In this document: piece after piece, positions 15,501-46,559 of the stretch | Layout: every line of letters begins with the position of its first letter | Position numbering within the stretch: position 1 is the first letter of the stretch | From: Raillietiella orientalis | Lineage: Eukaryota | Assembly (NCBI GenBank): GCA_036172245.1 | Contig: JAYWIR010000001.1 | Coordinates: 1,550,001-1,614,000 of the forward strand | Reading direction: 5' to 3' | DNA length: 64,000 bases | Made by a program: the position numbers and the translations under genes | The notes under the pieces: generated by a model | What the model was told of the DNA's origin: nothing | What the model saw: the letters and a program-made list of their open reading frames with translations, nothing else | Databases searched by the model: none

Positions 15501-15510
15501 CGATCATGTG

Positions 15511-16030
15511 ACACCGACCGACGCAGGTTCGAATCCCTCTCGGAGAAGAGTCGACGCCAAGAAACGAAGATGTGCGTCGGGGCTTTCGAGTCCCTCCCTC
15601 AGGATGACGCCGTCTGGTCCACAGAATTCGGATGCGGCGGCACTGGTGCGAGCCGGACGCCCCCGGGGACTGGAAGTCAACCCTCCGGGGTCCTTCCAAG
15701 GCATCAAGGAGCCCTTCGGGGTTCTCCGCTTGTGGAAATGCAGACTTTTCCTTCCTTGGCTGGGAACCCTCCGTACCAAAGAGCTGGTTAATAGCCCCCT
15801 CTCCTCGAAGGGCTGCTTCTCCAGAGTGCAAGAAGCGCGCTGCTCCCTTCGGAAAATGCCCTTAAGAGGGGGAAACAAGGAGTGGTCTCCATTGTGGGTT
15901 CACTCCGGAGAGAATGGGGATGAGAGTCCTTTCGGGGTTCCCCTGCGGGTACAATAAGGGCGAGGTTCCCTCTCAAGCGTAAGAGGAACGGACTCCTTGC
16001 TACGGTCTACGCTACGAGTCTTCCTGGATT
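15511..16030 (+). mobile_element. SINE-like repeat, copy 2
   Basis: GGTTCGAATCC at 15526-15536, a second box gctttcgagtcc, and the shared body through agcgtaagaggaacg...ttcctggatt. Confidence 0.65.
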
Positions 16031-16379
16031 GACGCAGCCTGCCCACTCCTTGACTGCTGCTGGGCGCGGGAGCCGCTCCCGAGCTGCCGGAGTGCCTCCT
16101 GCCGGGAGCCACCGATCGACCACCGCGGGGGAGACTCGAAGCCACCTCGCTGCCCAAAAGTCCACCTTCCGCTTCCCGGTGGCGGAGCAAACCGCAGCTT
16201 CCGGATGACATCACCGCACATCTCCTTCCGATGGGATGTCCCGCCTCCTTGCTACTTCAGATGGTCCTCACGTCCCCAAAGGGAGAAGGGCGTCCCCCAG
16301 CGCTTCTGTGGAAGCTGCTTCGACACCCTTTTTTCCTTCCTCGGCGGGTCGGGAGTGGAGGACGCGAGGCCGGAAGCGC

Positions 16380-17600
16380 CTGGGCTCCTCCTCCTCTCCT
16401 CCTCGAGATGGAGTGCCGCATCGTGTGCGCGCCGTGGCCTTCCACCCTTCTTCCCAAAACTCTTCGACATTATTCCAGAGCTCCCGGGTCCATCTCCGGT
16501 CGTCCCAGGAGGGAGACGGGGGAAGTACACGCGTCTTCGAACCTCTCCCTGCATGTCTCCAGGCAGCGGCTGGCAAAGGTCCCTCGCTGTAGCGATCGCT
16601 TCAGGATCTCCCCGGGCTTCTAGAGGTCGTTCTGATCCTTGTAAATGGGTCCTGAGGAGGCAGCCGTCTTCGGCTGCGGTGGCCGTCCACGTCGAGCGGG
16701 AGCGCTTCCTGAAAGTAGGAAGTGGAAACCTCATTCTCGGAAGGCAGGACCCACCGAAAAAGAGGTTTCGGGGGCTGGAGCGAGTAGGCGCGCGCAAGGG
16801 GGATGAGGAGGGGGGAGCGCAAAAAAAGGGAAGAAGAAGAAGAGCGGTGGAAGTTGGAAGAAAAAAAGAGAGAAGAAGGCAAAAAGTGGGGAATTCGCAC
16901 GACGCACCCGGCTGAACCGGGCGGCAGCGCGCAGCCTTTCTAGGCTGCTGCAGGCACTTTCACTCTTTAATCAAATGATCGGTAAACAGCGATGCGGTGG
17001 ATTCTGTGCCAGAAGGCGTGGAGAACGTGAAGAGATTCCACTGCGGGGGAGGAGGAAGGAGGTGACTGCAAAAAAAAAAAAAAAAAAGGGACAAAACAAA
17101 AGGAGGAAGAAATACCCCGGAAGAACCGCAGCGGAAATGCTTGCGACTCGAAGTAGGCGCTTCGGCGCTTTTCAGCCTCCCGTGGAGCAGCTGCTGCGAT
17201 GCCCGCGAAAGCTGCGGCAGGGAAGCCGGTTGCGCCCAGACGAGCGGGCACTGAGGATCGCACACGGCTGCCAGAGTCTCCAGAGATGCATCGTGAAAGG
17301 CAGCGGAGAGGTGGTCCGCCACTCGCGCACCCACTGAATTTACTTGAATGCGCCTCGGGACTCTCCGATGGTTCTCCTGGAGAGCGATCTGTGGTCGTTC
17401 TGGAGAACCGCGAGCAGAGAGCACCACCGACTAGAGAGTCAGCCAGACGAGACGACAAGGGTGGGGGTGGGGAGGCTCGCACGTCCCCTATTGGAATTTC
17501 TTCATCTCCTGAAGAATACAGCGGACGTTGACGCCGGAGTGGCACCGAGCTTGGCAGCGAGTGTGAAATCCGCTCTCCATGGTGACTATCGGGGAAAAAA
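16380..17600 (+). mobile_element. Decayed L1/Tx1-type LINE (EN fragment plus 3' end, internally deleted)
   Basis: RIVCAP..FFPKLFDII..PVVPGG and AVAVHVE..KVGSG are EN-like. At the 3' end, LRIAHG..H..LLEC and LWSFWRT are followed by a short A-run at about 17595-17600. Confidence 0.45.
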
Positions 17601-17648
17601 ACGGAGTCCGAAACCCGCGTGCGCGACAGTGAGGCAGCAGCTCGTGGT

Positions 17649-17745
17649 ACCGACCGACGCGGGTTCGAATCCCTCCCGGGGAAGAGTTGACGCCGAGAAA
17701 TGGGGGGTGCGTCTCAGGTTTCGAGTCCACCCCGCGGGATGACAC
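17649..17745 (+). mobile_element. SINE-like repeat, copy 3 (head only)
   Basis: accgaccgacgcGGGTTCGAATCCctcccggggaagagttgacgcc is nearly identical to the head of copy 2. Confidence 0.65.
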
Positions 17746-18899
17746 CTGCTGGACTATATTCGGGTGCAGCAGCGGACGACATTGGCACCGCTTCTGCGGC
17801 CAGGAAGGAGAGAGCCTTCGAGTGCGCTCTCGCGGTGCAAAAGGAAGCAGCTATGAATACACTGTCTGTTCTGGTTAAGTTAGGTTTGGTTAGGTAGGTG
17901 AGGTGAGATATGGTGAGCCTTCCGCACGTCAGCCACGGGAAACGATCGGCATAGTCGTCTCCAGGATGAATAGTGCATCAGGATGACCTCATCGAGAACA
18001 CAAATAAACGAAGGATCGCATCAGTTCCTTGCATCTCACCCAGGATATAGTGGTCGCGGATCAGATAACTTATTGAGTCTTCTGTTTCCGCTACATATCC
18101 GCTACATATTTATCTATGTTTCTCTCCCTCATCGATCCGGCCTTCGTGTGCCGTGTGGGTTTAGAATGAAGGCTACGCCGACCGCCATTCTCCTCAATCC
18201 CCATTTGACACTCAGAAGCACGTAGGAACTGATGCGCCTTCTGAAGGCAACCACATCACACGTGTCTGCTGCAGACTTTGCCAGCAATGGGGATAATCGA
18301 AAGCACCCACCACGAAGAATCCCAGCAACCGAGGGAGAGCAGTCTCCGTCCAAGTATGCCTTCATAAGTCTCCGTCTCAGTTTGCCCTCATGGGTCTCCC
18401 TGACTTCTCATTCTTCTTGACGCGCTCCTCCTTCCTGGTTCCCTTCTTCTCTGCAGCCCTAGCCCTGCAGCCAGATCTCTTCCGCCTCTCTTTTTTCTTC
18501 TCGAGGCGTCGGGCTACTCCGCTCGATCCGGAGGTGCGCTGAGCTGGACGCCGTTTCTCATCGGCGTGATGACCCCGAGCACTCCGACCGCCGGTCCGCC
18601 AGCTTCGAAGTTCTGGCGCTCGGCACGCGACGTTCAGGTCCACCTGGTCCACCAGACTCCCAGGTGGATAGCAGAGCCAGCTACCTTCCCTCTTCCGTCA
18701 CTCCCTCCCGCAACCAATTCACCGTGAACGTTACGAATCGCTCGACGGGAATGGACTTGCGCCACAGAGCGTGGAAGGTGGCACAAGCTTTCAAAACGTC
18801 ATCCACTCCAGGGCAGGGAGATCCACCGGGGTGAGCAACGAGACCGACCACCATTTACGACCTCCAAACTCCGACTCTCCTCAACGCGGGTGGTCCAAC

Positions 18900-20400
18900 A
18901 GACCCTCGAAGGCTGAAGACGGTCCTTCGGAGTTCAGCTCTTCCTGGGGTACCACTTGGTTCACCGCCGTGACCATCTGTTTCTAAGGTGCTGGCCATTC
19001 TTGGATGGAGTCACACTGCAAGAACGGAGCACTGCTACATTCCCTCCTAAATCTCCAACGTGCGCTGGGAATTCGTCGTCATCATCCTCCCCCTTCCCCT
19101 TCCCCTTCCTCCAGAAGATCTGCCGATGGTAGCCCAGCTGACTGGAACTCAAAGCGGCGGTGGCCGAACCGCCCAAATTTGGCACCGTCCGCACGATCCG
19201 GCTGAAGACCACTTCACTCGGTACACTCGGTGGATTGGCTGTGACGGTGATAGACAGGCCCCATCCGCCCCTTGCGTGCTCAGCACCGGCGACGAGATCT
19301 CTGACGTTTGGCGCGCCGGACAGTATGGGTTTCCTGGATTCCACGCGTCTTCAGGACACCTGAAGAAAGGTGCACGAGCGCTGCAACTAGCTGAGGCAAG
19401 CGCGCCGGGCGAGGTCGGCGTGCGGCAGAAAAAGCGCTGCAAGAATCAGCGAGAAATGGGGAGGGGGGGGGGAGAAAGCGTGGTGCAGGGAGAGATTGCT
19501 CTTCGTCTCTGCATCTCCATAAGCCGAAAGAAAGTACCGCATCCAAGGCTACATGCGACCGAGGGCAATATTCGTCTGGGCACTCTCTGTACCAAGGTTC
19601 CAGGTTTCTTCTGGCTGAACGCTGCTGCGTGGTAGGAGGAGAGAAAATGATCATCCAAAATGACCGTATCGAAGATGACTGTGGGTCTCTCTAAAGACAG
19701 GAGCTGAAGAAGAAGTGAAAGTCCAGTGCGAAAGTGCCGTGAATGGCCGCGTCGCATGTGACGCACCACCTAAAATGAAGGGTGAGGCAGAGCGCACGCG
19801 GCAGGTGGTCGTGCTAGCGGATCCGCGCCAATTGCAGCACACCCGCAGGCGAGATGATGCGCCCCGTGCTGCAGTGCTGCGGGAGGCAGGTCTTCGGACG
19901 GAGGAGCTCGCTCCGCGGCCCTGCCAGATTCCTCTGGCGGGGGTGGGAGATGCGTGGGTAAAAAGGTCGAGGGCAGACGACTGGCTACGTGGCATCTTCG
20001 GACTGCTCCGGCGCCTTCGTGGATGGCGTGAGGAGGTGCGGGAGCTCGTGCAGATACGCTGGGAAGCTTCGACCTCACGCAGGGGGAGCATGGCAAGACC
20101 ACCAAGGCAGACCGTGGCGCATGGCACCCGCAGACCCACGTCCGGTGGAGGGCTTGTCGTCTTGAACTGAAATGTGACTCCACACGCGCTTGAGCTGTGG
20201 CACGTGTCTCCGGTGAGGTGGACCTGCCTGCCGGTAGTGCGCTTGCCGTGGGGGAGGATTCCCAAGGGATGTGCGCTCTGCCGGGATCTCGGAAAGCCTT
20301 CCCGTGCGTGCTTTTGGAATGCGTCGGGCTGCAGGAAAAGTCGCAAACAACCACCCGAGGTCATGTCCGCTTTCTCGAGACTCTTTTAAGGTTCGCCGGT
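18900..20400 (+). mobile_element. Decayed L1/Tx1-type LINE (EN to post-RT)
   Basis: QIWHRPHDPAEDHFTR (EN; like D.WR..HP...FT), GNIRLGTLCTK, CESAVNGRV..TRQ, LRGIFG..RRLRGWR and ALELWHVS..LPWG occur in the expected order. Confidence 0.5.
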
Positions 20401-20494
20401 CCCGCTTCCTGTCTGGCCACCCCCTGCTACGAGCGAGCGGCAATGACCACGATCACCTGCGCTGGAGATGGCGGACTCCGCGCTTGTTCCAAGC

Positions 20495-21000
20495 GTAGCG
20501 GGTTCGGATCCCGTCCAGGGAAGGATCGACTCTGACAAATGGGGGGTGCGGCATGGGTTTCGAGTTCCTTCCTCCCCCCCCCCCCGCAGGACGACGCTGG
20601 TTAGCCTATAGACTTAAGATGCGGCACTAGGGGAAGCCGGATGCCTCGTTCACTGGCTGGGATTGGAAGTTGACCCTTCGGGGTCATTCCAGGAATCAAG
20701 GAGCCCATTTTCTTCGGGTTCCCCTCCGGTTGCGAAAATGGAGCCGTTCCATGGGGCTGGTTGATACCCTTCCTTAGGGCGGCTGCCACTCCAAAGTGCA
20801 AGTGCGCTGCTCCCTTCAGGGTTCTCTTCAGAGGAGTAACACGGAAGAGGTTCTCATGCGGGTTCCCTCCTCCGGAGCCTTCATGGATTCATGGGGTGTT
20901 CCTACGGGGCTGCCCCCTAAACTGAAGAGTTGATACGCGCCCTCGGGTGGCGTGGACGGTGCTTCAGGAGCTTCGTGAGCCTCTAGGCGAACGGTTCCCG
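20495..21000 (+). mobile_element. SINE-like repeat, copy 4
   Basis: GGTTCGGATCC at 20501-20511, second box gggtttcgagtt, and the shared body. The 3' part ggggctgccccctaa..gaagag..ggcgtggacggtgctt matches copies 6 and 7. Confidence 0.65.
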
Positions 21001-21499
21001 AGTACTTAGAGAAAAAAAGGAGATGGAGAAGGGTGTGGCTGCCATCAGAGAGTTGCCTCCGTCTGCCGCAGGGTGCCAGGAGATGACCCGACTGGAAAAG
21101 TGGCTCCAAAGGGCGCCTCGGGACAACTGCGGACTGGCTGGGAACTGGACCGACAATAGCGCCTGTTCTCTTGTTCTCCCTCTTGGAGCGGCGCATTCCC
21201 CGACCGTCTATAAATAGATTCATCTCCAACCGTCCGCAAAATGCAACGAGGTGATAAACAAGTGTTCATGCGCGGTTGTGGGCACGTGGACACGACGACA
21301 CCACTCGCACGGGATTGCGGATGTGCGGGATCGCAAACTTGCTTATGTGAACACGTGGTGCACACACACACTTTGAGGACGGCTCAAGGGCGTGCCCGTG
21401 CCTGCCAGACGTGACTTTTCCTCACCCTGCCCCACCCCGGGGCACGATGCCGAAATATGGATACAGAAGGATATGGAAGGACCTTATGTAACACAGACA

Positions 21500-22480
21500 A
21501 AGTATTTGGAGAGATGCTGAGTGAGGAATTCGTGCAAGGCGGAGAACGCCGGCGAGCTCCTGCTTCAACGGCTGGAACTCAGTCCTTTTTTGTTTATCCT
21601 AGCTGGTCGCCTTCGCGAGCTGCTGGACTGATAGACTGGAGATCTTTCCTGGATGATGCCTCCTGTCTTTCCCTGTCCCACAACGCCTGTTTGCTCGGGA
21701 ACCTGCAGGTCTTCCTTGGTTTTCTTGAGCTCTTCTCGAATGCAACTCAAGCTGCCAGTGTCACTAGAAAAAAAGAACCTCTTCTGTCTTTTTTCTGGTA
21801 ACGTTGGTCACACTTGTCCGGTGACCTCATTGATTTCCATCGCCCTGGAATTCAGTTGCTAATGTGGAGGCAACTCTGGAACGGCAGGCGGAGGAGCGGA
21901 CTTCACATCACCTGACTCTCGACAGTCCTCTTTCACTTTACGTCTTTCTCCGAAGACGCCACATCCCGGGTTCCAGCGGCAGAGCCGAATCTCTGAAGCT
22001 GCAAGCCCCAGGGATTTCTGCAGCGACCAGGAGGTGAACGGCATCGCGAAGATGGCGTCGCCGCGGTCCTCTTACATCCGCTCGGGGAACAGGGAGCAGT
22101 TCAGAAGCGGGAAAGCTCATCACGAGCTCGGAGAAAGGGCGCGGTGCCCGCGACGCTCCCAGAATACCGCTGACTGCTCGCTGCAGGAGACGTTGGAAAG
22201 ACTCGGGAAGACTTCGTGGGAGCAAGGCACCCCTCTTGCTGCAGCGCTGACGCCCCCGCGGTACCCCCCACGGCGGCGACCAGCCTGAAAGTTTGGAGGT
22301 GACCCGCGCGCAAGCGCAGGGATGGAAATGTTTGTTGGGATGTTTGAAGGCACGTCAGCTGGCAGTCGCTTCCACGCCCGAAGGACTTTCCCGATGGGTT
22401 CATCTCCTCGAAATCCCCTCGGAAGACGTGAAGATCCCCAATCCAAACCCCCATCCTTCGCTCTCCTCCTGAAGTGACAG
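21500..22480 (-). mobile_element. Decayed L1/Tx1-type LINE, RT fragment
   Basis: SGKSFGRGSD (like GKSPGPDG), LPESFQR, AEIPGACSFRD (like IPGRSI.D), GGIIQERSP (like GIRQG.PLSP) and ARINKK (like IN..KS). Confidence 0.5.
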
Positions 22481-22654
22481 GGCTTGGCTCATTCAACCCA
22501 TTCAACTCCTGGACAAGGGGAAGTGCGTGACTTCGGGCAATGTCCGGTGCGGTGAAAGGGAATCCTTCCCTCCTCTACTGATGGAGGAGCTGTGTCGGCC
22601 TTCGGGATGTGTGGGAACGTTTTGTAACGGGTCTACAATCCCCAAGGGCACATT

Positions 22655-22775
22655 CAAACCTTATATATAGATCTGGAAGGACATATGAGGCCTTGTACAG
22701 AGAGTTAGGACATGGAAGGACTTCATATGTAGATGTAGAAGGATATGTAAGGACCTTACATATAGATATAGATTT
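22655..22775 (+). repeat. Degenerate minisatellite of about 30-33 bp, about 4 units
   Basis: Units resemble accttatatatagatctggaaggacatatgagg and acttcatatgtagatgtagaaggatatgtaagg. A related unit lies at about 21457-21492. Confidence 0.6.
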
Positions 22776-23759
22776 TGGCAGTTTATATGTAAATATCCTT
22801 TCCCAATAAACGCCAGGGAAACGCATCCGTTCACAGAGTCGGGGCGTACGCTCGGCTTGCACGGTTGGTGCCTTTCATGCGTCGCCCACTCTCAGCGACG
22901 ACACAGGATCGATGCTCTCCCTCCTCCTCCCCCCAAAAGGAATGTGCTTCCTCATGCGGATGGGGCATGTCCTTGTGCAAGGAGGAGCGCTCGAGCCTCA
23001 CCTCCGCGCCTGGGGACGCACGGCGGTCGCACGAAGGGAGCACCGAGCTCTCTTCCGGTGCGACGGCAACAGCCTGCTCGCTTACCCTCCGGGAAAAGGC
23101 GCGTAAGCCGGGCGGAGGCATAGGCGGCCATTGCAGACGCATGGATGCGCTTTCCAGCTGTCTTCTGCAGTGTTAAGTGGGGCGACGGGTCGCGCCCATC
23201 ACGCTCAATGCAAAATCCGACTTGGTCAGCACCGCCGGGTCAGAAATGGTTTCTGTTGTCAGCGAAGATGGATGGAACAACACAACAAAAAAAAGAAAAA
23301 AGGAAAGAAAGAAACCGCATCCATCGGAGGCATCTGGATGGCAGCTCTAAATCATCCATTAAGTACGCCGACGGCGACCCCGTTTTCGAAACCGGGAGCA
23401 AAGCGGAAATCGGGCGACCGAAAAGACCGGCGACCTGCACGAAGCACCCCCCGAACTGGGAACTGAGCTCTTCCGGCACGGAAAAGACTTTCGGTGAGGC
23501 GGCGGCGGCGGCGGCGGGGGGGGGGACAACACTTTCTTCGCGAGGTGCGCGCGCGTGCGAGCAAAATCCCCGCCTTTTGTTCCGAAAGTAGGTGAACCCA
23601 GGCACGTCTCTTGGAAGCCCAGGTGCCACGGCGGAAGAAACTGCAGAGGCTGCGCGGGCGCCCGAACGTGCCGGGCACGCACGTCAGAAAGGCGGCGGCG
23701 GAGGGGGAGAAGGGAGAGCAGCGGGCGGCCGCGCCGCGTTGCCTCGCTTCCCCGAGAGC

Positions 23760-24030
23760 AAGCGGGTCTTCGGGAAGCGCGGTAACCTTGAAACCCGGAC
23801 GGAACTCTCGTCGTCCGGTAGGGAACTCCGGCGAGCGGGTCTTCCTGAGGGACCGGAAAAGGACGGAAAGCGAAAGTTCCAGTCGCAGCCAGCGAGGAAG
23901 TCCCGGCGCCTCTGGCTGGGCGGGGAGGGCGCCCGGATCCGGCGCTGTGTGTGCAGAACACCTTCGTCACGGAGGAACGCCGGAGCAAAGTCCTTCGGGA
24001 AGCCCGGATGCAGCACCCGCGCCCAAGAGG
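23760..24030 (+). mobile_element. Possible Tx1-type ORF1 (gag-like) remnant
   Basis: GNSGERVFL...EVP..LWLGGEGARIRRCVC resembles the G.R.F...P..F.LGG..G.I.Y.GQ..C segment that precedes the zinc knuckles of Tx1 ORF1. It is frameshifted and weak. Confidence 0.3.
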
Positions 24031-24139
24031 GAGCAACCCCTGCCGCACGAAGCGCGAGGCCGCCGCGCGGTTGAGACTTCCAGACTCAACTCCCTGACTT
24101 CCAGACCGCAACCAACTTGCTCCCGGTGCGACGGCAAAC

Positions 24140-25035
24140 GAACAGACGTGGATCCAGGAATTCTGGAAGCTGGGGAACCATCCTTTGAAGCCAGGGAGAC
24201 TCCGGAGGAAGGCGTCCGTTCCTCTCACGCTTGGGAGGGAACCCTTCGCCCTGGTTGTCTCCTCTGAAGAGAACCCCGAGGGAGGCAGCGCGCTTCTTGC
24301 ACTTGGGGGCATCGACCAGCTCCATGATGCAGCTCCATCCTCACAACCGGAGGGGAACCCCGAAGGCGTCCTTGATTCCTGGAAAGATGCCGGAGGGTCA
24401 GCTTCCGATCCCGGCGAGTCGAAGGAGCCATCCGGCTTTCCCCAGCTGCTGCACCCGAAGTCTTGCTGCTCAAATGCACAATTTAACATCGTATTACGGG
24501 GGGAGAGGCTCTCCACGTTCTTCCGGGATTCCTCCTCTGTCCATCTGGGGCGCTCGTACCTCCCCTCAGCCTGTCGCTTCTTCGACTTCCTGTCCTCCGT
24601 CTCGCGAGAGCCGATCACCGGGGTTCACCGGCTGCATCTGGCTGTCGGTCTTCCGTGTGACGTGAGCTGCGTAGATGCCGCTGGAGTACCGGACGCACGA
24701 AGCCACCATCCGGCGTCTCATCTCCTCCGATTGCCTGCCCTCAGGGCAAACTGTTTCCCCTCTCTGCCTAGTTGGAGGGCTGCTTCCTTGTTCTTTTCCT
24801 GTTTGTTCCTCCTAGCTGTGCTGGACGCCTCCTTTCCACCCTCGGACGGGCAGCAGATGGCCAGCACTCTTACCCCTCGATTTCTTTTCTTCAGTACCAG
24901 CCCAACCAGCGTCGTCCTGCGGAAGGGGCGGGGGTGGGGGACGGGAGCGGAAACCCTGCGACGTACCTCCCCCCCCACACTTCCTTCACATGTCGGCGTC
25001 GAGGCTTCCCCAGCTGGGATTCGAACCCGCGACTC
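24140..25035 (-). mobile_element. SINE-like repeat, copy 5 (body at about 24140-24440, head at about 24990-25035, separated by other sequence)
   Basis: The body is the reverse complement of the shared module (ccagctccatg, ccttgattcctggaa). GGGATTCGAACCC lies at 25016-25028. Confidence 0.6.
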
Positions 25036-26591
25036 TTTGAACAAACGCGGAGCCACGAGCTGCGTGCAGCCAACGTGGGCCGCGCGCAGCTCGTCGCACC
25101 GCGGGGGAGAATTGGAGGGCAGCGACGAGCTTCCCGTGTCGAAATCCGGCGGGCAGGGAGACGGGAACCGTAGGACCTGCTTGCCCCTGCACTCGGAGGC
25201 TTTCTGGGGGCAGAATGTGGGCCGGTGGGCAGATGCCATGACTGGAAACTGGGGACGACGCTTTCTCGCCAAAATACTTCCTTTGCTTTCCGACCGGCAC
25301 CACTAATTCTTCATGTCCGTCAGCTCGTCGCAGCGCTGTCCAATAAATGGACGCCGCTGTTTACCAGCGAAGATGGCGCAGAACGGTGGTGGAAGAGGTT
25401 TCCTTCGATCTGTTCATTCCTATAGAGTCGTTCCACGATTTTCTTTTTCCTTTTCCCCCTATCTTTGCGGACCCAGCGTTCCGATCTTCTTGGCTTTTCG
25501 GATCCGCTACGATGCTTGCCCGAATTGGAACAGAGATGCGTTGCCGCGCGGGATCGCATCCAGCTGTCATCCGATCTGGTGCCGATTCGCTGCTCACAGA
25601 AGACGGAGGTGCGTGAAGACACCAAGCAAGCGAGTATGGGGGGGGGGGGTTGCCTGTCGGCAAGAGAAGACGCGTGTCCAACGGGGACTGTGTGATCTTC
25701 GCGCCGGTCGCAGATCTGTGACAAGAAAGAGATGCGGGTCACAACCATTTCGGGTTGCATGGGATGAAGGGTGAATAGCTGCTGGAGAAGCGCGGTCCTT
25801 GGATCCAGGAAATGAACTCAGAGATGCTGCAAAGATATCGCCACGTTAGAGCAGAAACCATTAGAATTAGAATCATTTCACTTTAGTGCTTGCCCGAGTG
25901 GCTTGGGGGGGGGGGGGGGGGGGGGGAAGCTGCTTTTCCCTTGTGGCCAGGAATTCATGCGAGTGATTACGTTACAGAAGGAAAGACAAAAAACACACGA
26001 ATGGGGCATTGCGCAAATTAAATAGCAGCTGGAAATGTCATGAGACCCAATACTGTTCCTCGTTTTTTTTCTGATTCCGTAATCGCGATCAACCAGAGGG
26101 GATCGTCTTTTGGTCAGTTTCACGAAAACGCCATGTGCTACTGCGTACGATCCATCATTTCCGTACCACAGGTTTTGTAATCCTTCCGTACTCGACACGC
26201 TTTTTTCGCATGGCGCCAGCACTGCTTTGGCGAACCTGCGAGCGGATCAATCCAGAAACGTCCGAAAATTGGAGGAACCACGCCGTGGAGCCACACTGCC
26301 CATGCACAGTCGTTCGCCTCGGGGGTTCGCGGGGAAACCTGTGCTAACGTTGACCAGTTGACGGGGTCCCTGAGCGTGTGCCCCCCGGACTGCACGCACG
26401 TTGCGGTCATGCGGCACGCAAGCGTGCACCAGCTCTCGTCACGTCCAAATAACCGACATGTGCTTTGACCGTCAAAATACACAGTGGGATACGATTTCTA
26501 AACTGTTAACAAAGTGTAGCGTGCATCCTCAAGTGGTGCCTCCCTTTTCTTTTCTTTTTTTTTTCTTTCTATGAACTTGAATTCTAAAAAA

Positions 26592-27440
26592 CAAGGGTTC
26601 GGGTCAAACGAGCCATCGAAATCCCGAATGCCGAAATCTCGAGAGATCATGAAAAATCAACATATATGTATATACTTAAGTGAATATATAAACATCGAAT
26701 TGCAAGCATATGTGTTTATGGAACGATCAAAATGCCGTAAACGGAATTTGTCCTTTACTGCGCGCGTTCCGTTTGTTGAGAATCGGAAATGGAGTACCAA
26801 ATTTCTTTCGCGTTTCTTTTCATTTGCTTGCCTTTTTATTTTTCCCCATCACTGCTTTTAATTCTGTGTAATTCGATATTTACAAATTCATTTTATAAAC
26901 GTTAATTAGATATAACATATGTACAATAAACATATGCATTGATTTTTATAATCTTTGATGTGTATATTAATGTATTATTAATTATATTAAAAATACACGT
27001 TGATGAATATTATTTAGTATATACGTTAAAATAAATTTGTATATCAATACATATATAAATATAGATATTTATATATACATAGTAAGCTATATATTTATTT
27101 TTATAACCTTAAGCATCTATATTAATAATATATTAGTGCATGTTGCTAATTATATTAATAGTGGAACATGCATGTTGATAAATATGACTAAACACATATG
27201 TTAAAATAATAGCTATTAATAAATATCTATGTTGAAATAAACTTCTTTATTAATCTATATGTGAATATATGTATCAATAAGCATGTATGGTCATTTTTTG
27301 TAATCTTCACAATGTGTATTTATCTATTTGTTAATCTACATGTAAATATATATGATAAATAAGGAGATTTGTTTTTTTTGCGATCTTTCGAGATTTCGAC
27401 ATTCAGGATTTTGACCACTCGGGATTTCGGCGTTGGCGAC
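26592..27440 (-). mobile_element. AT-rich MITE-like DNA element, copy B
   Basis: It begins caagggttcgggtca...cgaaatcccgaatgccgaaatctcga and ends gatctttcgagatttcg...cgggatttcgg (inverted ATCCCGAA-type repeats). The core is inverted relative to copies A and C. Confidence 0.65.
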
Positions 27441-27449
27441 TTCGTTAGG

Positions 27450-28100
27450 CGCCTCAAAAACAGGATCCGTGGACCAGTTCGATCCACCTTCTCTAAAAGG
27501 AAATTTTCCTGGATGACATCCAACCGGACGGTCGTCTCTCGTGGAAACTAGGGTGATTCGTCACACCTTAATCACCTCGGAACCAGCGTAGGCTCGATTA
27601 TTTTGCAACCCACCAAAAAAGTCTGGGGCAAAGGCGCCTGCGAGCACGCTGGACAGCAGAAGACAGAACTTTCAAACAGGAGAAAGGAATTCTGTCGCTT
27701 CTCTCCCAACTTCCATTCCGCCGCTTCGATTTCAGCTTCAACGTCCGACTCATCTATCCTCCGAGAAATCCTCTTTTCGAGTCGCTCCATGACTTCTTAG
27801 CGTGCGTCCGGTTTTCTCCTGACGAGGCTGCTTCTGAATGGACCTTCAGCTCACGGCAATCGGCTCAGCCCCGTGCACCTTCACTCTCCGAAGAGGTTCC
27901 ATCGACACCGCTGGAGGAACCCGACAAGATCTGCAGTGAAAGCGCACGTCCCCCGCTTAGATGCTGACCTATCGTGGCGACCCCGCTGTCATCAGCAAAT
28001 GGGGGTCGGCTCAGTGCCGATTTCAGAATTCCAACTCGAAAGATTGAGGCTTGCATGCAACAGGCGGACGCTGAGATTTCCCTGCTTCGAAGGCTGGACG
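27450..28100 (-). mobile_element. Decayed L1/Tx1-type LINE fragment (linker and RT start) between MITE copies B and C
   Basis: ERLEKRIS..EAEIEAAEWKL (like L...IT..EI..A), then RLDVIQE..LEKVDR..ILFL (like D.EKAFDRV.W.FL). Confidence 0.4.
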
Positions 28101-28469
28101 GCTGGTGACTGGGAAGCCAGGATTGTACCTCACCCTGTTGCTACTCTTTTCCGCACCCTCTCCTGCAGGCAAAAGAGCGATTCTCGAAGAGAAGGCGCAG
28201 CTCGCTCAGATACGAATGAGGAACAGATAGGGAAGAATGAAAGACGTGAAGCAACGGGAGGAAGCGCACCTCCTTCCACAACGGCGAGGATCGCAGGTCT
28301 CTCTGGTTCGCCTTCAGAAGACGAGGGTCTCCCTCTTCTTCCCTGAGCAAGCTCCTGTTTTGACCGACCAAGCGCCCTCTTTGCCCGAAGAGAGCTGTTT
28401 CTGGGCCGAGCCTCTTCAACGCAACACGAAGCACGGAGCAACAGTGGTTGATGAAGGCGGTGCCCCTCA

Positions 28470-29487
28470 GATATCCCAAACGCTGAAATGCCGAACAATC
28501 CTAAAAAATAAATATACGTGTTCACTGGATACATTGAGATATATTAATCTATATATAGATTAATATATAAATATATTGCAGTTTACTTATTGATTAATAT
28601 TTATTAACATATGTAATGTTAATAAAATCCATAATATGTATTAATATATTATGAATATATATGTTAAAGATTATAAAATAAATATATGTGTTCATTGGAT
28701 ACATTTATATGTATAACAAATACATATTAAATGAATGTAAAAATATCGAGTTATAAAAAGTAAGCAAAATAATGATAATTGAAAATAGTGGAAAAGAATA
28801 AACAAGCAACTGAATTTAAAAAAGCAAAAAAGAAATTGGGCATTTCATGTACATGTCATTTCCAGCATTCAATGAATGAAATTTCCTGAGGAAATGACGA
28901 TTTCCATTCTTCGGGATTTTGATCGTTAGAAGAAAATGTGTTTATAATTCGATATTTATACATTCATTTTATATAAATTTATTATACCTAAAAATATATA
29001 TAATAAACAAATATGTATTTATAATCTTTAATACATAGTGATAATAGATAATAACACATTATTCAAAACATATTAACAAAATATATGCTAATATGAATAA
29101 ATATGTAAGCTAAAATAAATTCATAATATATTATTATTACAGATTATGGACAGTTGCGCGGAGGTAGCCCATAAAAGCTGGCCGACTTTTAAATCCTTTT
29201 TTGTTTCTCTTAATTTTTTTTTTTTTTTTATTTTTCCCAGCATTATGAATTGCCAGCATTATTTTTAATAATTCGCTACCCTACGTATTTCGTTTTCGTA
29301 TCATTTCCAACATCCAGTAAATGGAACCTCCTCGATAAATGATGAACTGCGTTTTCGGGATTTTAATCCTTCGGGATTGTGATCTTCCGGCTTTCAGACG
29401 TTGGGGATTTCGATCTTTCGGGATTTCAGAATTCGGGATTATGTCGTTCGGGAGCGTGTCTTTCGGGGCTATGAACCGAACCCCTTG
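28470..29487 (+). mobile_element. AT-rich MITE-like DNA element, copy C, with sub-terminal tandem TTCGGGATT repeats
   Basis: About 8 imperfect units of roughly 15 bp (TTCGGGATT + spacer) lie at 29350-29470. The terminus tgaaccgaaccccttg is the inverted match of the left end of copy B. Confidence 0.7.
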
Positions 29488-29589
29488 CGAGATTTATAAG
29501 TTAATTAATTTACTAATATGACAGGAATAGATGTGTGAAATTTAGGATTTAATTACGCTTTTGCTGTTGGTAATCATTTTTATATGTGA

Positions 29590-29720
29590 TTTACCGTTGG
29601 TTTGTGTAATGAGATGGCTCCTCGGAGACCATAGCAAACAGATGAAGATCTCAGGCGTCAGGATCACTGACGACAGAATAAGGAGTGTTGTTTACGCTGC
29701 CTGCTTGCTAATGGAATCCC
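29590..29720 (+). mobile_element. Decayed LINE RT catalytic-region fragment
   Basis: ISGVRITDDRIRSVVYAA (29648-29701) resembles L1-clade I.GI.I...IK...YADD with the aspartates lost. Confidence 0.5.
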
Positions 29721-30539
29721 CTCTGAATACCCCTTTCCCTTTCTGAAGCAGGAGGAAAGTAGTCAAGAGGCGGGTGATGCGAAAGTCTGGAATAGGTCAG
29801 GAGATGCAGCGGATCAGGAACGCTCTCGAAAGGGCTCGGAAGGCTACTTGATCAGATCCCGCCTGGAGTCAGGGAAATGCAACTCACCCTCACGAAGCGC
29901 CTCCGGCGGAGTAATGAGTGACCGAAGTGCTCCTGCATCTTTCTCTTTCCTTTCTTTCCGCTTCCCACCTGGTAAGAAGAGCAGAGAAGATTTTGTTCCG
30001 AGCTGCTGGGATTTCCTAATTGGGGATTTTCGTTCCAGGGAAGACCCCGCTCGGTTCCCGTTGGTCCCTTCGCTCTCCCCGCCTACACTCTCTGCCTCCC
30101 GGAGAGTACTCCCGGAAGCTTCCATCGCCACTGTTGACAAAACAACGTACCTTCCGTGGAAACCTTGATTAATTATAGTTGGGTACTGCTGGTATGGTGC
30201 GAAAGCCGATAGCCGACCAATGATTCACAAAGGCCGAAGCGAAATCCTAGGTCTCCTATTCTTGCTATTATGAATAGTATAAATACAATGCACTATTCGT
30301 AATGATTTAAGACCATATCTTCATGCAGTTCTCCTTCCAGTTATAGGCACTCGCTGACATCGTGATAAAATGACTCTTATCGGAAAGGTTCAGCACGATT
30401 ATTCTCCTGTTCGCTAAACTCTATCACAAATATACGCATGCTAATCATACTGAAGCTCCTCTCTACTTCATTCCTTTTCATATTTGTCTTTTGGAAATTA
30501 TAACGATAAATTATGATAACGACTTTCTGTTACCTAAAA

Positions 30540-30676
30540 TCTCAAATTGCAATGAACTGTAAATTCATCAAAAAGAAGGAGGCTGGCGTAAATTCAAAGT
30601 AAAGAATTGCTCAAGAAAATGCAAGATTGCCGAGGCATATTTCACGTGGAAGAAAAAATACGGTGGTCTTTTAGTC
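30540..30676 (+). pseudogene. Decayed bacterial IS3-family OrfA (HTH) transposase-like fragment
   Basis: SQIA....IKKKEAGV / frameshift / KVKNCSRKCKIAEAYFTWKKKYGGLLV parallels IS3-family OrfA EQI..ILK..EAGV.V.E.CRK.GISEAT.Y.WKKKYGGL.V. Confidence 0.55.
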
Positions 30677-31639
30677 TATACAAAAAGTCCACTTTCTGAT
30701 TGTTCTTACGAATGTTGCTTGATAGAAGGAAAGGAAGCATGAATTTGTTAAAAATTAGCTCTAACGAGCAGAAAATTTATGAGGGCAATGAGACCATTAC
30801 ACAGAGTACTTCTTGTATATATTCTTTAATACATACGGTATGCTTCTATTGTATGGATTGTTGCATGCAATTGCAAATTGCTAAAGGGTATCAGTAGAGT
30901 CAATGATTTTTTGTGCAAGGCATATACGGAAATGCTGTTTTCATTTATAGTATGTCTATGCAGTCACACCCATGTATGAAAATTGAAGCTGATTTCTGTG
31001 GCATTCCACTGTAAACCATCAATCCCAAGTACTCTTCATGATAGTACGTTTGCTACTATTAATCATGCCCAAATAATTAGATGCAAGCAGCTATTGCAAC
31101 AGAAATGTACATTCTGGTAATATCTGATCAATCGTTTTGGCTGAGTTTGTTTCAGATGTACTATTATTATTTACATTACCATACTTTTTGCCTCCATTCC
31201 ACTCTAGAATAAGATGAATGCAAAATAAAAGTATCCAGGTTCGCTTCCCCCAAGTTTTCGCTCAGTTACTTGCGACTTTAAAAACCAATAAATTTTTCCA
31301 TTTTCTTCAACCCATTCAATAGAAACGTGATATATCTACGGAATAGATTAATGGAAATAAAATATATATATATATTTCTTTTGTTGGTAAACGGAACGCT
31401 TTTCCATTGCCATCGCATGTATTGATGATTTCCCATTGAATATAGAAAATTTCATCATTATTTATTATTATCATAATTAAGACTGCTTCAGTAAAGCATA
31501 AGATTTGCGATTCTTTGTATTCGGAAACTTTGACAGACCGAAATTGCAAATAATTTTTAATGATGTCAGCATCACTGTGGGTCCACTAAAAGCAAACGTC
31601 ACCCCCAATAGGATCTTCCGTCCCGCTGGTTTGTCAAAA

Positions 31640-32841
31640 ATGTTGGATTCTCTTTTTGTAAGTTTCATAGTATTTTTATGTGCAGTTCATTCGAATTGTA
31701 AGTAAATGTGTGTTTTTAGATTTCCAAGTAATTTTGTCGTGAATTTTCAAAAAATCAACCATTAAAAATTAAGAGTGATGAAATATTCAATGCATTTAAA
31801 GTTGCATGCTGGTATTTGATTAGTTTGTTTTTCAGGTAAATCATGCTTGAACCCCAAGGTAACAGCCAAAACATATGTTACCCCAAATGCAATAATCGTT
31901 GCACAAATTGCATACATTGCAGAAATTAGTGTCCACTGCGAAAATGAAGTGAAGGTATGCTTACTGGTGTGTTCTTGTTGATGTTTTAGAAATTCAGGGA
32001 TCCTATTTATATGGAGAAATAAACAATCAATTGATACCAGCCGTACGCAGTGTGAATGGTGATAAATATCAGCTAACGTGGATCAAGGAAGTTCAAGATG
32101 CTAAAAGAGATGTGCAAATAAAGTTGTATGACGAAGAGGGATACGCAGCATACAAAAAAGTATGTATATATAATTACATAAAAGTAATTGAAGACGTGCA
32201 TTATTATACTGTGGTTATTACGTTTATAATTTAGCCTTAAAAATGGTGTTATTTTGAGTTTAAATGCCATTCCAGAGAGATCTTAAGAGTTTTTGTTCTT
32301 CTATAATTTGGAATAACTTTTCCTGTATCTATGATTCAGTTTGAAAATTTCTATGTCGACTCTGGAAAAAAAAAAAGGATAGAAAATTGTTTCAGTTGCT
32401 GATGCTCTTTACTGGATTTTTTCATTATTGTTGTTTCTCATAGTGAAAGAACTCCAAAGATAATTTTACATTTTCATACTAGCTATTTTTGTGCATGTGT
32501 TTGAGAATTAACTCTCTCTGGTAAAGTGAAAGATTTGGAGGAGATAAAAATTGATTTATGTACTGCATTGTGTACATTGTAGTTCTTCCTTGTTATATCT
32601 GGACAAATCAATGTGTTATACTTTCAGTTTCAAAGATCAGGCAACACAGGACAGGTGTCTCCAGTTCATGTCATCACCATCACCAATCCTGTGAGTCTCA
32701 TGAGTTAATTGCAAGTACCAAACGAATTTATTTCAGTCAATATACAATGGTCCATGGATTAGTTCAGAACTTATAGCACTCATACTGGCATTATTTATAT
32801 GGTACCTGGCATATCGATCTAAGCGCTCCCTGACCTCATAA
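31640..32841 (+). CDS. SSR4: Translocon-associated protein subunit delta (TRAP-delta). Exons 31640-31697, 31836-31954, 31998-32159, 32628-32690, 32737-32841 (168 aa)
   Basis: In-phase GT-AG joins give the signal peptide MLDSLFVSFIVFLCAVHS, then CLNPKVT..Y.T.NA.I....AYIAEISVHC, LYGEIN, KYQLTW, LYDEEGYAAYKK.QR and YNGPWISSELIA + TM, collinear with human SSR4 (CLEPQIT, RYQVSW, FFDEESY..LRKAQR, WNGPWVSTEVLA). Confidence 0.94.
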
Positions 32842-32863
32842 AACTAAAGAAAAATAATAAGCT

Positions 32864-32869
32864 AATAAA
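32864..32869 (+). promoter_or_regulatory. Putative polyadenylation signal of SSR4
   Basis: AATAAA about 22 nt after the TAA stop. Confidence 0.6.
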
Positions 32870-35800
32870 TATGGATGTATTTTCAGTGTCATTCACTAGC
32901 TATGGGAAAATTGATTTCTGAACATCATTTGAATTGCAAGGATTATGGAAATTTTCCATTTTTAATTTTGGATTTCACTTCAGACATGTTACATTTGCCA
33001 GTGTTTTCAAATTTTTAAATGTTGCAAAAATAAGAGTTTCTGTTATCAATCCTTCCAGTACGGGGGAGGAGGGACTTTGCTTCCCTTTTTTTTTTTTTTT
33101 TTTTTCCTTCTTATTCCTCTTTAAAGTTAAAGTTCCTTCATCCTGAGGAGAAAAAAAATTCCATTTTGGAATAATGAAATGTAAAAATAGCCAATTTTCA
33201 TAGGTGCAAGCAACTTTTTTTACATCTAGGTATTTCATCCTAGACTGCACCAGTGAAACCAGAGGTAGTCTTGATTAGAATTATAATTAGTCAATCATGC
33301 CAAGCCTTTTTTTTTGTTCTCTTCAAAATTACTGCCTTATTAGCCTGTATTTTACAGCAAGATGGTAAAGTAAACAGACAGTCACTTTATCTGTTATATT
33401 TCAGTGCCTGATTTTGAATTTTTGGATGCTCATGCATAAAATATTCAAGCTTTGGTGGTTATCAGTTTTTCTCAAAATACTTATCAAAGTATCACAGAGC
33501 TCAATGGACATCACCGAAGTTTTTTTTTTTTTTTGGGGTATGCAAATACTTTTTGTTGATTCTATCTGTGTACGTAGTCTTTGATATGATCTAATGCCCT
33601 TCAGAAGGAAATTCCAAGCAAACGGATGGCTGTTTCATCTTTTTGTGGACAGTTTCTAAAGCCCCCAAACCTTTATCTGATAAGATTTGAACATGTATTC
33701 GAATGGAATCGAAAATACCGAACAACCATGTTGCATTTTTGTAATTCTACACGTTTTCCCTATCGAGTTGAATAACTGCGGGCTGCACTATTATCATCAT
33801 TTGCATTCAAAAAAATCTGTGAAGAGGACTCCAGGCTCATGATTTAACGTGGCGGAGACGTCAGCACGAACAAACCGGACATTAGTAAAGAAGTTATGTA
33901 TGATGCAAGGTTAATGTAACAGTACTACCTAAGTTAAATTACCACCGATCGATCGATACGGCACCCAGAAGTGCCTGCACTGAACCGGCAGGTGAAAATG
34001 TGCTCTTGTTAAGCAGCAGGAGAGCAAATTCTCTTCACCAAGATTGTAGAAACAGCATGAATGTTGCACCCACTCACAGTACACAATTTGGAAAATTGCA
34101 AGCAAACGTTAACTACTCACTTCTGGAAATAAAAATGCTCTGCTGCAGTTTCATTGTGAGCCTGTCTCTCGCATTTTTTCAAAGACGGACTGCTTGTTTC
34201 GCAATATATTTCGTTTTCGAGTATTCCGTATTTATTAGAAAACCGATCCCGGCGACCGGGGTAGGTGGCACGGGCATGATTTACAGGGTTTTGCGTTTTC
34301 GTACAGTACATTCCTCCGTGAAGCTCCAACACCCAGCCCACGTGCTATTGGTTCCGTCGAAATCCCGTCACTCAATGTTCCCATTAGTTTTCTGGTCATT
34401 CTGATGTAATTTCCACCAGTTTGCAAACGTGCCGTGGGATGTTTACACTCTTAATGTTCTGAAGATACGATGCGAAAAGCAATTTCGTAGATCGGCACTA
34501 TTTTTTTTTTTCTCTCTCTCTCGCCTCTCTCGCCATCTCACTTTCGAGCCATGTAAATATGTACACAATTTAAATAAGCCGATATCTTCGGATCCTCAAG
34601 TATTTGAAACGGTCCTGACATCAAAACCAGGAGCTCTGGAAGCAAACGCTTGTCAAAGGTTGTACGTATGAGCCATGTCAACTCTTTGAGCTTGGCTTTC
34701 AGGCACGAAATCCATTCCTAGGCATTACTGGTAGTAAGTCATCTGCACGTTTAATTGAGAGTTGGAGGCAGTCTGTGTAGACACAAAGGGTTTTTCTGGG
34801 ATGAAATTCTTTGATATGTTGTAAAAAACCATGCAAACACCGAAGGACTGCTACGTTCGCCTTCATTGACAATAACCAGTAAATGTAATTTAACGACTGA
34901 TTTGTTCCTTTTTGGTGTTTGCATATCGTTGATTTGATTAGTTAAGAGTAATTAATTTTCTTAATAAAGGGTAATTAAAAATTTTAATCAAGATGCAGTA
35001 TGAAAAGGAATATTAGTGAGCTACAGTATTTAAAATTTGGATGTATGTATGTAATTTTATGCTGAAATAGGATTTAATTGTAAATTTGTTTGAGAAAGGT
35101 AAACTGAATGTAATAATCATTGAATACAAATCGCCCGTCGCTCTGATAGAAGATTAGATAAGTCGTAACATAGTGGATGTACCGGAAGGTGTATCTAGGC
35201 AAGGGGATAATTTACTAATATAAGTAAAGATGGATTTGATGCTGATAATTATTTGAATTGAATTCGCAATCCTTTACGAAGGCATTCCTAAAATCGTCTC
35301 GAGCAGAATGAAGATGATTAGAAACACTTTGCGTGCACAGCACGAACATGCCAGGTCGCGCTGAAATCTGGTTTATGTTGGGTATCTAATCCTTTCGAAA
35401 TAATAAACATGAAACGAACTGCCATTTTTCTCAGCTTTTAAAGTGCAAACTCAAACTAAGATGTCTTCGTTTCCAACTCCCGTTGAAACTCCACCTGCGT
35501 TAACCAATCGATTCAAAACGGTTGTACGGTGATGAGAAATTCTTGAACTTAATGTGCTTCATCGGTCTTTAATCCCTTTAATGTGTTTAATGAGCACGTC
35601 CGACTATATGTACTTCTAATTCGTTTTAACCCAAACGAGAAAATCCAAAGCAGTTACCCCGCATCTTCATGATTATACACAGCAGTGGCTGTGGTTATGA
35701 GAATAAATATGCTAATGAAATACCAACAAATTATTCATATTTGAAATAAGGCAAATTCTTGGAAGTATACCTTTCGAGGCTTGAAAGAGGGACGAGGGTT

Positions 35801-35938
35801 CCCTCTGGCATCGGTCATGCAATATTAAAAATGTATCCAATTACTTTCCATGTATAATCCAAGCATTGGCGTGACTTGCTTGAAAGGCGAAAGCATTTCA
35901 ATTTATAAGACTCGTTGGCACCCTCTTGAAAGTAGCGT

Positions 35939-35962
35939 TGTGTGTGTGTGTGTGTGTGTGTG
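35939..35962. repeat. (TG)n microsatellite
   Basis: Directly visible. Confidence 0.95.
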
Positions 35963-37835
35963 TATCCATTTTCTCTCTCTCCCCCTCTCCTCGCAAGCGA
36001 ATTGGGAGTTCTCCTGCCTAAGAAGGCAGGCCGCAATCCCAAAGCCGTGATGTCTTGCTTACTGTCCACGGTGGGACGACCAGACCCGTTGGTGCAATCC
36101 CGGAGCTTGGGCATGGAGTCGGGGAGATTTCTTCTTCTCTGCGAGGGTGGTTGCGCACCCGTGAGGTTCCTCGCGCTTACTGTGGTTGCAGTTTCCGTTC
36201 CGAGTGATGCCGCAGCGAAATCTGCTGCTGCTCTTCGAGTGCACCACACAGTTGGATGCCTCGGATAGGCATCGGTCGGATGCCTTGTTATTAAGATCAT
36301 GCGTCAATTTATAGCTTCGTGTTTTTGTTGCTACAGTTATCTGAGTGAAGTCGTGGTTTTTTCTCTCCCTCTCTCTCTCTTTCTTGCTCTCTCTCCTTCA
36401 TCATCATCGTTGGATGCGATTATAAGTCATGCAAAGTGTACACCATATCTTCCTCTGACGTCAGCTGAAGATTCAATTTTTTTTTTACTCCAAGAGCAAA
36501 AATTTACAGCGTGTTTTTCGTGCGAGGTTATCATGAAGGAGCTTAGCCTTGTGCGTCCGTCGACGCTCCCGCAGCCTTACCCACTGGCGTGGATAGTTAG
36601 AATTAGAAGCTTTCTAACACGCACTAATTGGCAACTTTGGAAAAAGTCTCCCCGATCCTTATTCGAATCTGAAATCCCATACTTTCATTCCAAAGGTTTT
36701 TTTTCTTTTTGGGGTTAATGACTCCCCCCCCCCCTTTCCTCCCAGGTTTCCTTAAATTTCTCATCTACGCACGGCGATAGGGGGGGGGGGGGATCAATAT
36801 TTTCGGAGAGCTTGTGTTCAGAATTAGGAAATATTCAATCGAAAGAAGGAAAGAAAAAAGACTTGACACAAAGTGAAAGCACTGAATAATGAAGAAATAA
36901 ATTATTTCAAGAAATCATCCGCAGGATACGAAACGCAGAAACACACGCGCGCGCACGCGCGCGCTGACGCACGCACACGCACACGCGCCGAAATCCGTTT
37001 CGTTCGGAGCAATTTTCAATGAATGGAGAGTTCACGAGCGCACCTTTCGAAGACCGCCGCCGCCGTACACCGCGGAGTCACGCCCGGACCCGTGTGTTCC
37101 CGCGCCGCCGCCGCACCGCGGGTGGAGCCGCGAGCGGTGGCGGTGGTCCCTCCTCGGATGCTGCGAGGACCGACGTTTCCAAGCGTCACCGGATACGCTT
37201 TCCGATGCGCGGGATGAGCGGAGTGAGAGCAAGGAGCCTCGGAGGGCTGCGAGTCGGCTGTGTGACCTGGGTCTGCTGGATCGAAGCGGTCGAAGGAATG
37301 CCAGCAGCAGCCTCTCTCTCTCTCTCTCTCTCTCTCCCCCGTGGGATGGTGGCACTTGGCGGTGAACAATCACGTGGAATGTTTACTCGGCTGGAGTAAT
37401 GGTCATAGTAGTAGAGTAATGGCATCGGCAGCAATTACCGTCCTTTCCGCGGTGTGTGTGTGTGCACTGCGGAGCGCGCAAGCAGCAAACACATAGAAGG
37501 AGAACGACAAACATTCGTGTGCGCGTGTTTTAATGAATTGTCGCACGCTGCTCTCGCCGGGGTTTTGATTTCTGCAATTTCCGGGTGATTGGCGGACCCG
37601 GAAAACAAATTCGGGGGTGAAATCGATCGGCAGAGAGGTACTTTTCAAAAAAGTGCGTTTTCCTTTCCTTTTTTTTTTTTTTTCCCCCTGCCGAAAAAGA
37701 AAGAAAGACGTACTTTCGATTTTCGGAATTTCTCCGGATGGAATTTCGCATCTGAAGGATGCCGAGTTCTGTCAGGGCGTATGCCGTTCTGCGTTTCCAT
37801 GTGAACGAAAATTTTCTCTCGTAATGGCGCGCGAT

Positions 37836-37838
<3 letters not shown>

Positions 37839-37906
<68 letters not shown>
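37839..37906. repeat. (AC)34 microsatellite
   Basis: Directly visible perfect repeat. Confidence 0.97.
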
Positions 37907-46503: not shown

Positions 46504-46508
46504 GTGTG

Positions 46509-46539
<31 letters not shown>

Positions 46540-46559
46540 TGTGTGTGTGTGTGTGTGTG
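46504..46559. repeat. (GT)n microsatellite, interrupted
   Basis: Directly visible. Confidence 0.95.

Follow-up and report, generated by a model that had tools for sequence, protein, structure and literature searches.

A stretch of about 135 bp in the AT-rich part of a eukaryotic contig resembles the helix-turn-helix (HTH) region of OrfA, the first protein of bacterial IS3-family insertion sequences, and the resemblance exceeds chance for the window in which it lies, that is, for the whole 64-kb stretch of DNA analysed here. The explanation that best accounts for this match, to which we attach a rough probability of 0.45, is that the stretch is a genuine fragment of a bacterial IS3 orfA gene, roughly 135 bp in length. 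The IS3 family is among the commonest bacterial insertion sequences. If the fragment is genuine, IS3 would be added to the few prokaryotic mobile elements found so far in eukaryote chromosomes, and the host, having received bacterial DNA, would merit a genome-wide look.

The principal rival is a chance look-alike, in which AT-rich and lysine-codon-rich intergenic DNA happens to resemble the 37 most conserved residues of OrfA without any bacterial ancestry. We regard this as a serious contender, somewhat short of even odds, and most of the evidence below bears on the choice between the two.

Organisation of the stretch

The first-pass annotation had read two peptides at 30540-30676 (+), in frames one shift apart, and both are present letter for letter in the sequence and its translated frames (Table 1). 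After SQIAMNCKFIKKKEAGV, encoded by codons 30540-30590, the frame of 30510..30602 gives NSK and then a stop; the final nine residues of this upstream piece correspond to positions 14-22 of the OrfA profile described below, which comprise the end of helix 1 and the turn preceding the HTH. The second frame, that of 30563..30742, gives KVKNCSRKCKIAEAYFTWKKKYGGLLV for codons 30596-30676 (+), and its main piece, VKNCSRKCKIAEAYFTWKKKYGGLLV, aligns but for one absent residue with profile positions 24-50, which take in the W-KKYGG motif and the helices of the HTH. The junction between the two pieces would, if the stretch is a relic, represent a frameshifting indel of net +5 nt. The similarity to OrfA ends at 30676, from where the open frame continues for 21 unrelated residues: the alignment stops at profile position 50, YTKSPLSDCSYECCLIEGKEA does not resemble the half of OrfA that forms the leucine zipper, and no fragment scoring against profile positions 51-88 was found near 30677-30900 in a six-frame profile search. 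Overall, the stretch of ~135 bp represents ~37-45 of the ~88 residues of OrfA, in a broken frame.

Table 1. Coordinates of the OrfA-like stretch, the neighbouring gene and the dispersed repeat, numbered from the first letter of the window
Feature	Position	Strand	Details
Upstream piece	30540..30590	+	frame of 30510..30602; reads SQIAMNCKFIKKKEAGV
Junction	30591..30598	+	8 nt vs one codon in bacterial OrfA; best join 30590 to 30599, X at break
Main piece	30599..30676	+	frame of 30563..30742; reads VKNCSRKCKIAEAYFTWKKKYGGLLV
Remainder of open frame	30677..30742	+	YTKSPLSDCSYECCLIEGKEA, then stop
SSR4/TRAP-delta gene	31641..32841	+	5 exons; Pfam and splice sites by eye
SSR4 exons	31641-31698, 31836-31954, 31998-32159, 32628-32692, 32737-32841	+	exon ends inferred
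TTCGGGATTTCGA-like repeat units	26609-26656, 27374-27444, 28899-28924, 29359-29443, 29996-30031	both

Profile scores and their null distributions

The OrfA profile was built from 123 sequences, namely 120 listed bacterial OrfA proteins together with the OrfA of L002-L004, and was searched against the 2205 stop-to-stop fragments of at least 12 aa in the six frames of the 64-kb window (118,991 aa in all). A single-frame fragment, 30563..30739, scored 25.7 bits (E 1.2e-6 at Z=2205), and the runner-up among the window fragments reached 4.3 bits, 21 bits lower, a separation that speaks against the chance reading. The single-frame alignment spans profile positions 16-50, with a three-residue insertion and a one-residue deletion. 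A 20-Mb null, generated by an order-3 Markov model that had been trained on 26000-36500, yielded 1,080,702 fragments. The three best of these scored 14.9, 13.4 and 12.3 bits, as predicted by the E-values of HMMER, which were checked on this null.

One question then is how much of the score is owed to the WKKKYGG motif, whose degenerate DNA pattern occurs once in the window and in none of 100 shuffles. When TWKKKYGGLLV was kept and the 144 nt upstream were randomised, the median score was 10.9 bits, the 99.9th percentile 18.5 and the maximum 22.7, such that the upstream context contributes ~15 bits on top of the motif. Since none of the 3000 motif-kept replicates reached 25.7 bits, the likeness is more than that of the WKKKYGG motif alone. 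Likewise, seven single OrfA queries from different bacteria all rank the same fragment first, at 17.2-24.1 bits, with any other window fragment scoring at most 6.4 bits, an agreement that again disfavours chance.

These scores are nevertheless biased upward, because it was the fragment itself that led to both the profile and the seven queries, and in our judgement this query-led choice would inflate the significance about 10-fold or more. The profile is one of an OrfA subfamily, which the fragment matches inclusive of the CRK-GIS-W-KKYGG core; the nulls for scores against it topped out at 14.9 bits (Markov), 22.7 bits (motif kept) and 23.6 bits (the join search described below). Allowing ~10-fold for the choice of profile, we estimate that chance would supply roughly 1e-6 to 2e-5 matches of this quality in an AT-rich window of 64 kb, which would amount to ~0.005-0.15 per genome of 0.3-1 Gb. 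This is not below the likely rate of true relics, as far as it can be gauged from a survey in which no IS3 copy was validated in 431 genomes (PMC3673617), and we estimate the two rates to be of the same order. In addition, the motif was known to the reader, and the finding was picked from a very large scan, both of which favour chance.

The shifted upstream frame

The first-pass annotation had proposed that one frameshift separates the two readings. Joining the first frame up to 30590, through an X at the break, to the second frame from 30599 raises the score against the 123-sequence profile to 34.9 bits, and the joined row, FIKKKEAGV-X-VKNCSRKCKIAEA-YFTWKKKYGGLLV, is identical at 20 of the 37 profile positions 14-50. 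The proposed frameshift thus improves the alignment by 9.2 bits over the single frame, but it is not strictly needed, as one frame alone aligns to positions 16-50. Control upstream frames joined in the same manner gave 27.7 and 24.9 bits, gains of +2.0 and -0.8. The KKEAGV that the main piece lacks is found, correctly spaced, in the adjacent shifted frame, an observation that speaks against a chance look-alike.

The join search comprised 108 variants, and simulations subjected to the identical search reached a maximum of 23.6 bits (n=1405 replicates). The same upstream frame was preferred by all seven OrfA queries, with joined scores of 24.0-32.4 bits. For two of the seven, the maxima of the conditional simulations, 24.6 and 25.4 bits, lay near the real joined scores of 25.9 and 27.9; these per-query simulations used 300 of the 1405 replicates, with default filters. 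The relic reading is a slightly better fit to the frame-shifted extension and to the agreement of the seven relatives. Against it stands the fact that the likeness breaks off just where the best-conserved core does, as a chance match would; the match is confined to the columns of highest information, profile positions 14-50, and its abrupt ends on both sides fit chance slightly better.

Curated libraries and database searches

A significant match to HTH_Tnp_1 had been set beforehand as a test of the first-pass proposal, and in this curated library the proposal failed it: the 59-aa frame scored 12.8 bits at E 0.15, where the Pfam cut-off is 24.1 bits. HTH_Tnp_1 is the sole Pfam family reported for the fragment, and the region aligned (24-57 of 75 model positions) is the appropriate one, with one of five fragments matched; yet a spurious GCV_H match on an SSR4 exon, which serves as a yardstick, has the same size (13.2 bits, E 0.083), as expected if the likeness is accidental. 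NCBIfam gave no IS3 model for the fragment, the one match being a spurious LolA1 at E 0.11, and PHROGs gave no match (0 of 2).

Database-wide pairwise searches were at chance level. A tblastn search of 7.3 Gb of plasmids returned 51 records with E-values of 0.8-9, values of 0.8 or worse being what a chance origin would predict; among the best 25 of the 51, the annotation under the match, where present (H29, H30, H31, H37), is IS3 family transposase. At the DNA level, the 87 plasmid records returned by blastn all fall short of 80% coverage of the query, their matches being at most 53 nt long, and no plasmid-borne IS matched the stretch beyond 25-53 nt. An exhaustive phmmer search of 1.84e9 representative proteins found no OrfA at E<=1e-3. 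Its sole match, P0122 (E 1.9e-4), was rejected, being a repeat protein of 1671 aa matched in three stretches and not a transposase. A word-index protein search with the fragment gave no candidates.

Relatives were found by scanning for the peptide pattern, which yielded one among 148 pattern matches in prokaryote genomes, where bacterial chromosomes were covered by the pattern only, and three among 257 in metagenomes. The nearest bacterial relatives found are 38-46% identical over 35-40 residues, and 61.5% over 25 aa. The motif that the first-pass annotation had given for OrfA proves correct, in that OrfA proteins from plasmids, a metagenome-assembled genome and metagenomes read (E/D)(A/T)G..V.E(V/I)CRK.GIS(E/D)ATYY.WKKKYGG(L/M).

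Other IS3 components, donor and composition

In an IS3 element orfB, which encodes the DDE (rve) domain, is reached by -1 frameshifting. With OrfB profiles, the best scores in the window were 6.1-6.3 bits (E about 0.5) and lay elsewhere, none falling within 30100-31900; the OrfB profile had been rebuilt from L003 and L004, its first version having held a probably wrong frame of L002. A Pfam search of 17 further fragments, from both strands of 29671-31705, detected neither DDE nor integrase nor any other domain of a transposase. No terminal inverted repeats (TG...CA), TA..TA ends or flanking direct repeats frame the stretch, and the inverted pairs around it are only short (12-20 nt, 74-92% complementary), as expected in AT-rich DNA. 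A second copy is absent from the 64-kb window by six-frame profile search.

The stretch is equally inconspicuous in composition, with a GC content of 36.5% against 37.0% upstream and 34.9% downstream, and forms no GC island. Searches with blastn of 30170-31750 and 26000-33900 against plasmids gave no match, and in the plasmid and protein searches and the pattern scans no single bacterial lineage proved closer than family-level conservation. The top blastn row overall, from a Rickettsia felis plasmid (E 0.2), had seemed to point to a symbiont but was rejected as a chance match to an unrelated AT-rich stretch outside any IS3 gene; the transposase adjoining it is of another kind.

The first-pass description of the stretch as an IS3 OrfA-like relic is supported in so far as the whole HTH matches the OrfA profile, but not with respect to any other IS3 part, to donor-like DNA or to a compositional island; its suggestions of an old transfer and of an arthropod endosymbiont as the source are conjectural. 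The lack of further IS parts, together with a composition equal to that of the flanks, is what the chance reading would predict.

Genomic context

The neighbouring gene, placed by the first-pass annotation about 1 kb downstream, is indeed SSR4/TRAP-delta, on the same strand, with Pfam TRAP-delta matches on three exon frames (E 9.5e-11, 5.7e-14 and 9e-09). With splice sites placed by eye, it runs from an ATG at 31641 to a stop at 32841 through introns of 137, 43, 468 and 44 nt. As assembled, 30540-30676 lies 965-1101 bp upstream of the ATG, the distance from its end being 965 bp. The assignment to an animal is a putative one, drawn only from TRAP-delta and the short GT-AG introns of this gene. 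The gene is very compact, two of its introns being just 43-44 nt long. A word search of 5.8 billion proteins found no homologue of exon 3 among longer proteins, and the host may therefore come from a poorly sampled lineage; the protein atlas likewise yielded nothing usable.

The AT-rich surroundings noted in the first pass are also borne out, as the stretch lies in a block of 32-42% GC at 26-36.5 kb, between long blocks of 55-65% GC. The window as a whole is a sharp composition mosaic, in which GC-rich blocks at ~9000-26000 and 36500-64000 flank the ~10-kb AT-rich block, and SSR4, inside the latter, is its only recognisable gene. The ten longest open reading frames of the GC-rich flanks (310-483 aa) contain no Pfam domains, and this DNA looks non-coding; no Rfam families or tRNAs were found in the window. 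Long dinucleotide microsatellites, perfect or near-perfect, lie inside the GC-rich blocks, (AC)34 at 37839-37906 and (GT)28 at 46504-46559.

Upstream of the stretch, a dispersed short repeat of TTCGGGATTTCGA-like units occurs in both orientations (Table 1). At 29370-29440 it forms a tandem array, in which a 31-nt unit is present 2.3 times, and the whole may be left over from a repeat family of the host. An inverted repeat at 28673-29025, with 85-nt arms that are 79% complementary and 183 nt apart in very AT-rich DNA, is a MITE-like or foldback structure.

Alternative origins

Whatever the weight given to chance, two further origins have to be considered. The stretch could be a decayed host repeat, derived from a eukaryotic mobile element such as IS3EU or GingerRoot or from another transposon with an IS3-OrfA-like HTH start. 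We consider this improbable. Superfamilies related to IS3 and IS481 do exist in animals (PMC10045372, PMC6839031, in the parts available), and this origin would remove the need for a transfer from bacterium to animal at the site; but in the available parts of the same papers the alignment is limited to the catalytic cores and an HTH of the OrfA type is not described, the N-termini of IS481EU looking TetR-like (PMC10045372) and an HTH going unmentioned in the accessible sections of PMC6839031. The absence of transposase domains from the 17 further local fragments searched with Pfam, the single copy in 64 kb and the lack of TA..TA ends also argue against it.

An assembly artefact, in which a short bacterial read or contaminant was stitched into a eukaryotic contig, is very unlikely indeed: IS contamination of eukaryote assemblies is a known caution (PMC3673617, in the text at hand), but a contaminant would be intact and closely matching, whereas the stretch is frameshifted, ~45% diverged from any OrfA found, of the same composition as its flanks with no sharp junction, and matched by plasmid IS DNA over only 25-53 nt. 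A live bacterial contaminant is similarly disfavoured because of the eukaryotic gene context on the contig and the decayed reading frame.

Should the likeness be accidental after all, it would still serve as a calibration case, a family-specific match of 37 residues with 54% identity, at E ~1e-6 within a window, being undecidable without comparative data.

Proposed origin of the fragment

On the reading that we prefer, the stretch would be what is left, over about 110-135 bp, of the 5' half of an IS3-family orfA gene from a bacterium; dead and no longer coding, it would cover the helix-turn-helix that recognises the ends of the element. Bacterial DNA with an IS3 element would have entered the germ line, and a short piece alone would have been captured or have survived, as commonly happens with insertions from organelles or symbionts. 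Later changes would then have comprised one frameshifting indel, the loss of one codon and about 45% amino-acid replacements. Such a scrap is without function now, as it codes for no transposase and has no ends for mobilisation, and nothing suggests that it regulates SSR4. The wider claim, that an animal germ line received an IS3-family element, by itself or within other bacterial DNA, of which an orfA fragment persists beside a housekeeping gene, is a tentative one, which we place somewhat short of even odds. If it is true, further scraps of the same donor would be expected elsewhere in the genome.

There is precedent for DNA from prokaryotic ISs in the genomes of eukaryotes (PMC3673617, PMC10083226). 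In the former study, 431 eukaryote genomes were screened for every IS family and 80 sequences were validated, each of them IS607 and none IS3, from four phyla that did not include animals, and because only IS607 was validated the prior for an IS3 relic is low. The threshold of that screen (>50 aa, E<=1e-6) would have missed the present stretch. PMC10083226 describes Wolbachia DNA with the IS481-family ISWpi4 in a butterfly chromosome, which shows that such transfers happen.

Comparison with known systems

Among eukaryotic elements, IS3EU and GingerRoot share an IS3/IS481-related ancestry and occur in animals, and in the available text of PMC10045372 and PMC6839031 they are defined by a DDE core, TA..TA termini and 6-bp duplications, of which the stretch has none. 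The documented IS607-like and ISWpi4 insertions (PMC3673617, PMC10083226) exceed 50 aa and often span the full length. Their bacterial relatives are close, and flanking symbiont DNA or a shift in AT/GC content sometimes accompanies them, whereas the present stretch measures ~135 bp and shows neither a close donor nor a distinctive composition. If real, it would nevertheless resemble the IS607-like copies in amoebae, fungi and stramenopiles, in the available account of Gilbert and Cordaux 2013 (PMC3673617), in placing bacterial mobile DNA beside eukaryotic exons, and it would be the same kind of event as the Wolbachia ISWpi4 segment in the butterfly, to judge from the portions of PMC10083226 at hand.

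The closest comparison is with IS3-family OrfA itself (HTH_Tnp_1, PF01527), whose nearest examples come from a Hymenobacter plasmid (L003), a Sulfitobacter plasmid (L005) and an uncultured bacterium (L006), the nearest relatives carrying CRK.GIS.ATYY.WKKKYGG(L/M). In L006 (1-2755), which has the closest OrfA, the IS3 orfB frame is apparently truncated after ~87 aa and is followed directly by an unrelated gene of 545 aa; this copy therefore looks cut short. Unlike IS3-family OrfA, the stretch lies in eukaryotic intergenic DNA, is without leucine zipper, slippery site, OrfB/DDE and terminal repeats, and falls below the Pfam gathering score. Like it, the stretch shares 20 of 37 consensus residues across the turn, the HTH helices and W-KKYGG-L, in the same order and at the same spacing save for two indels.
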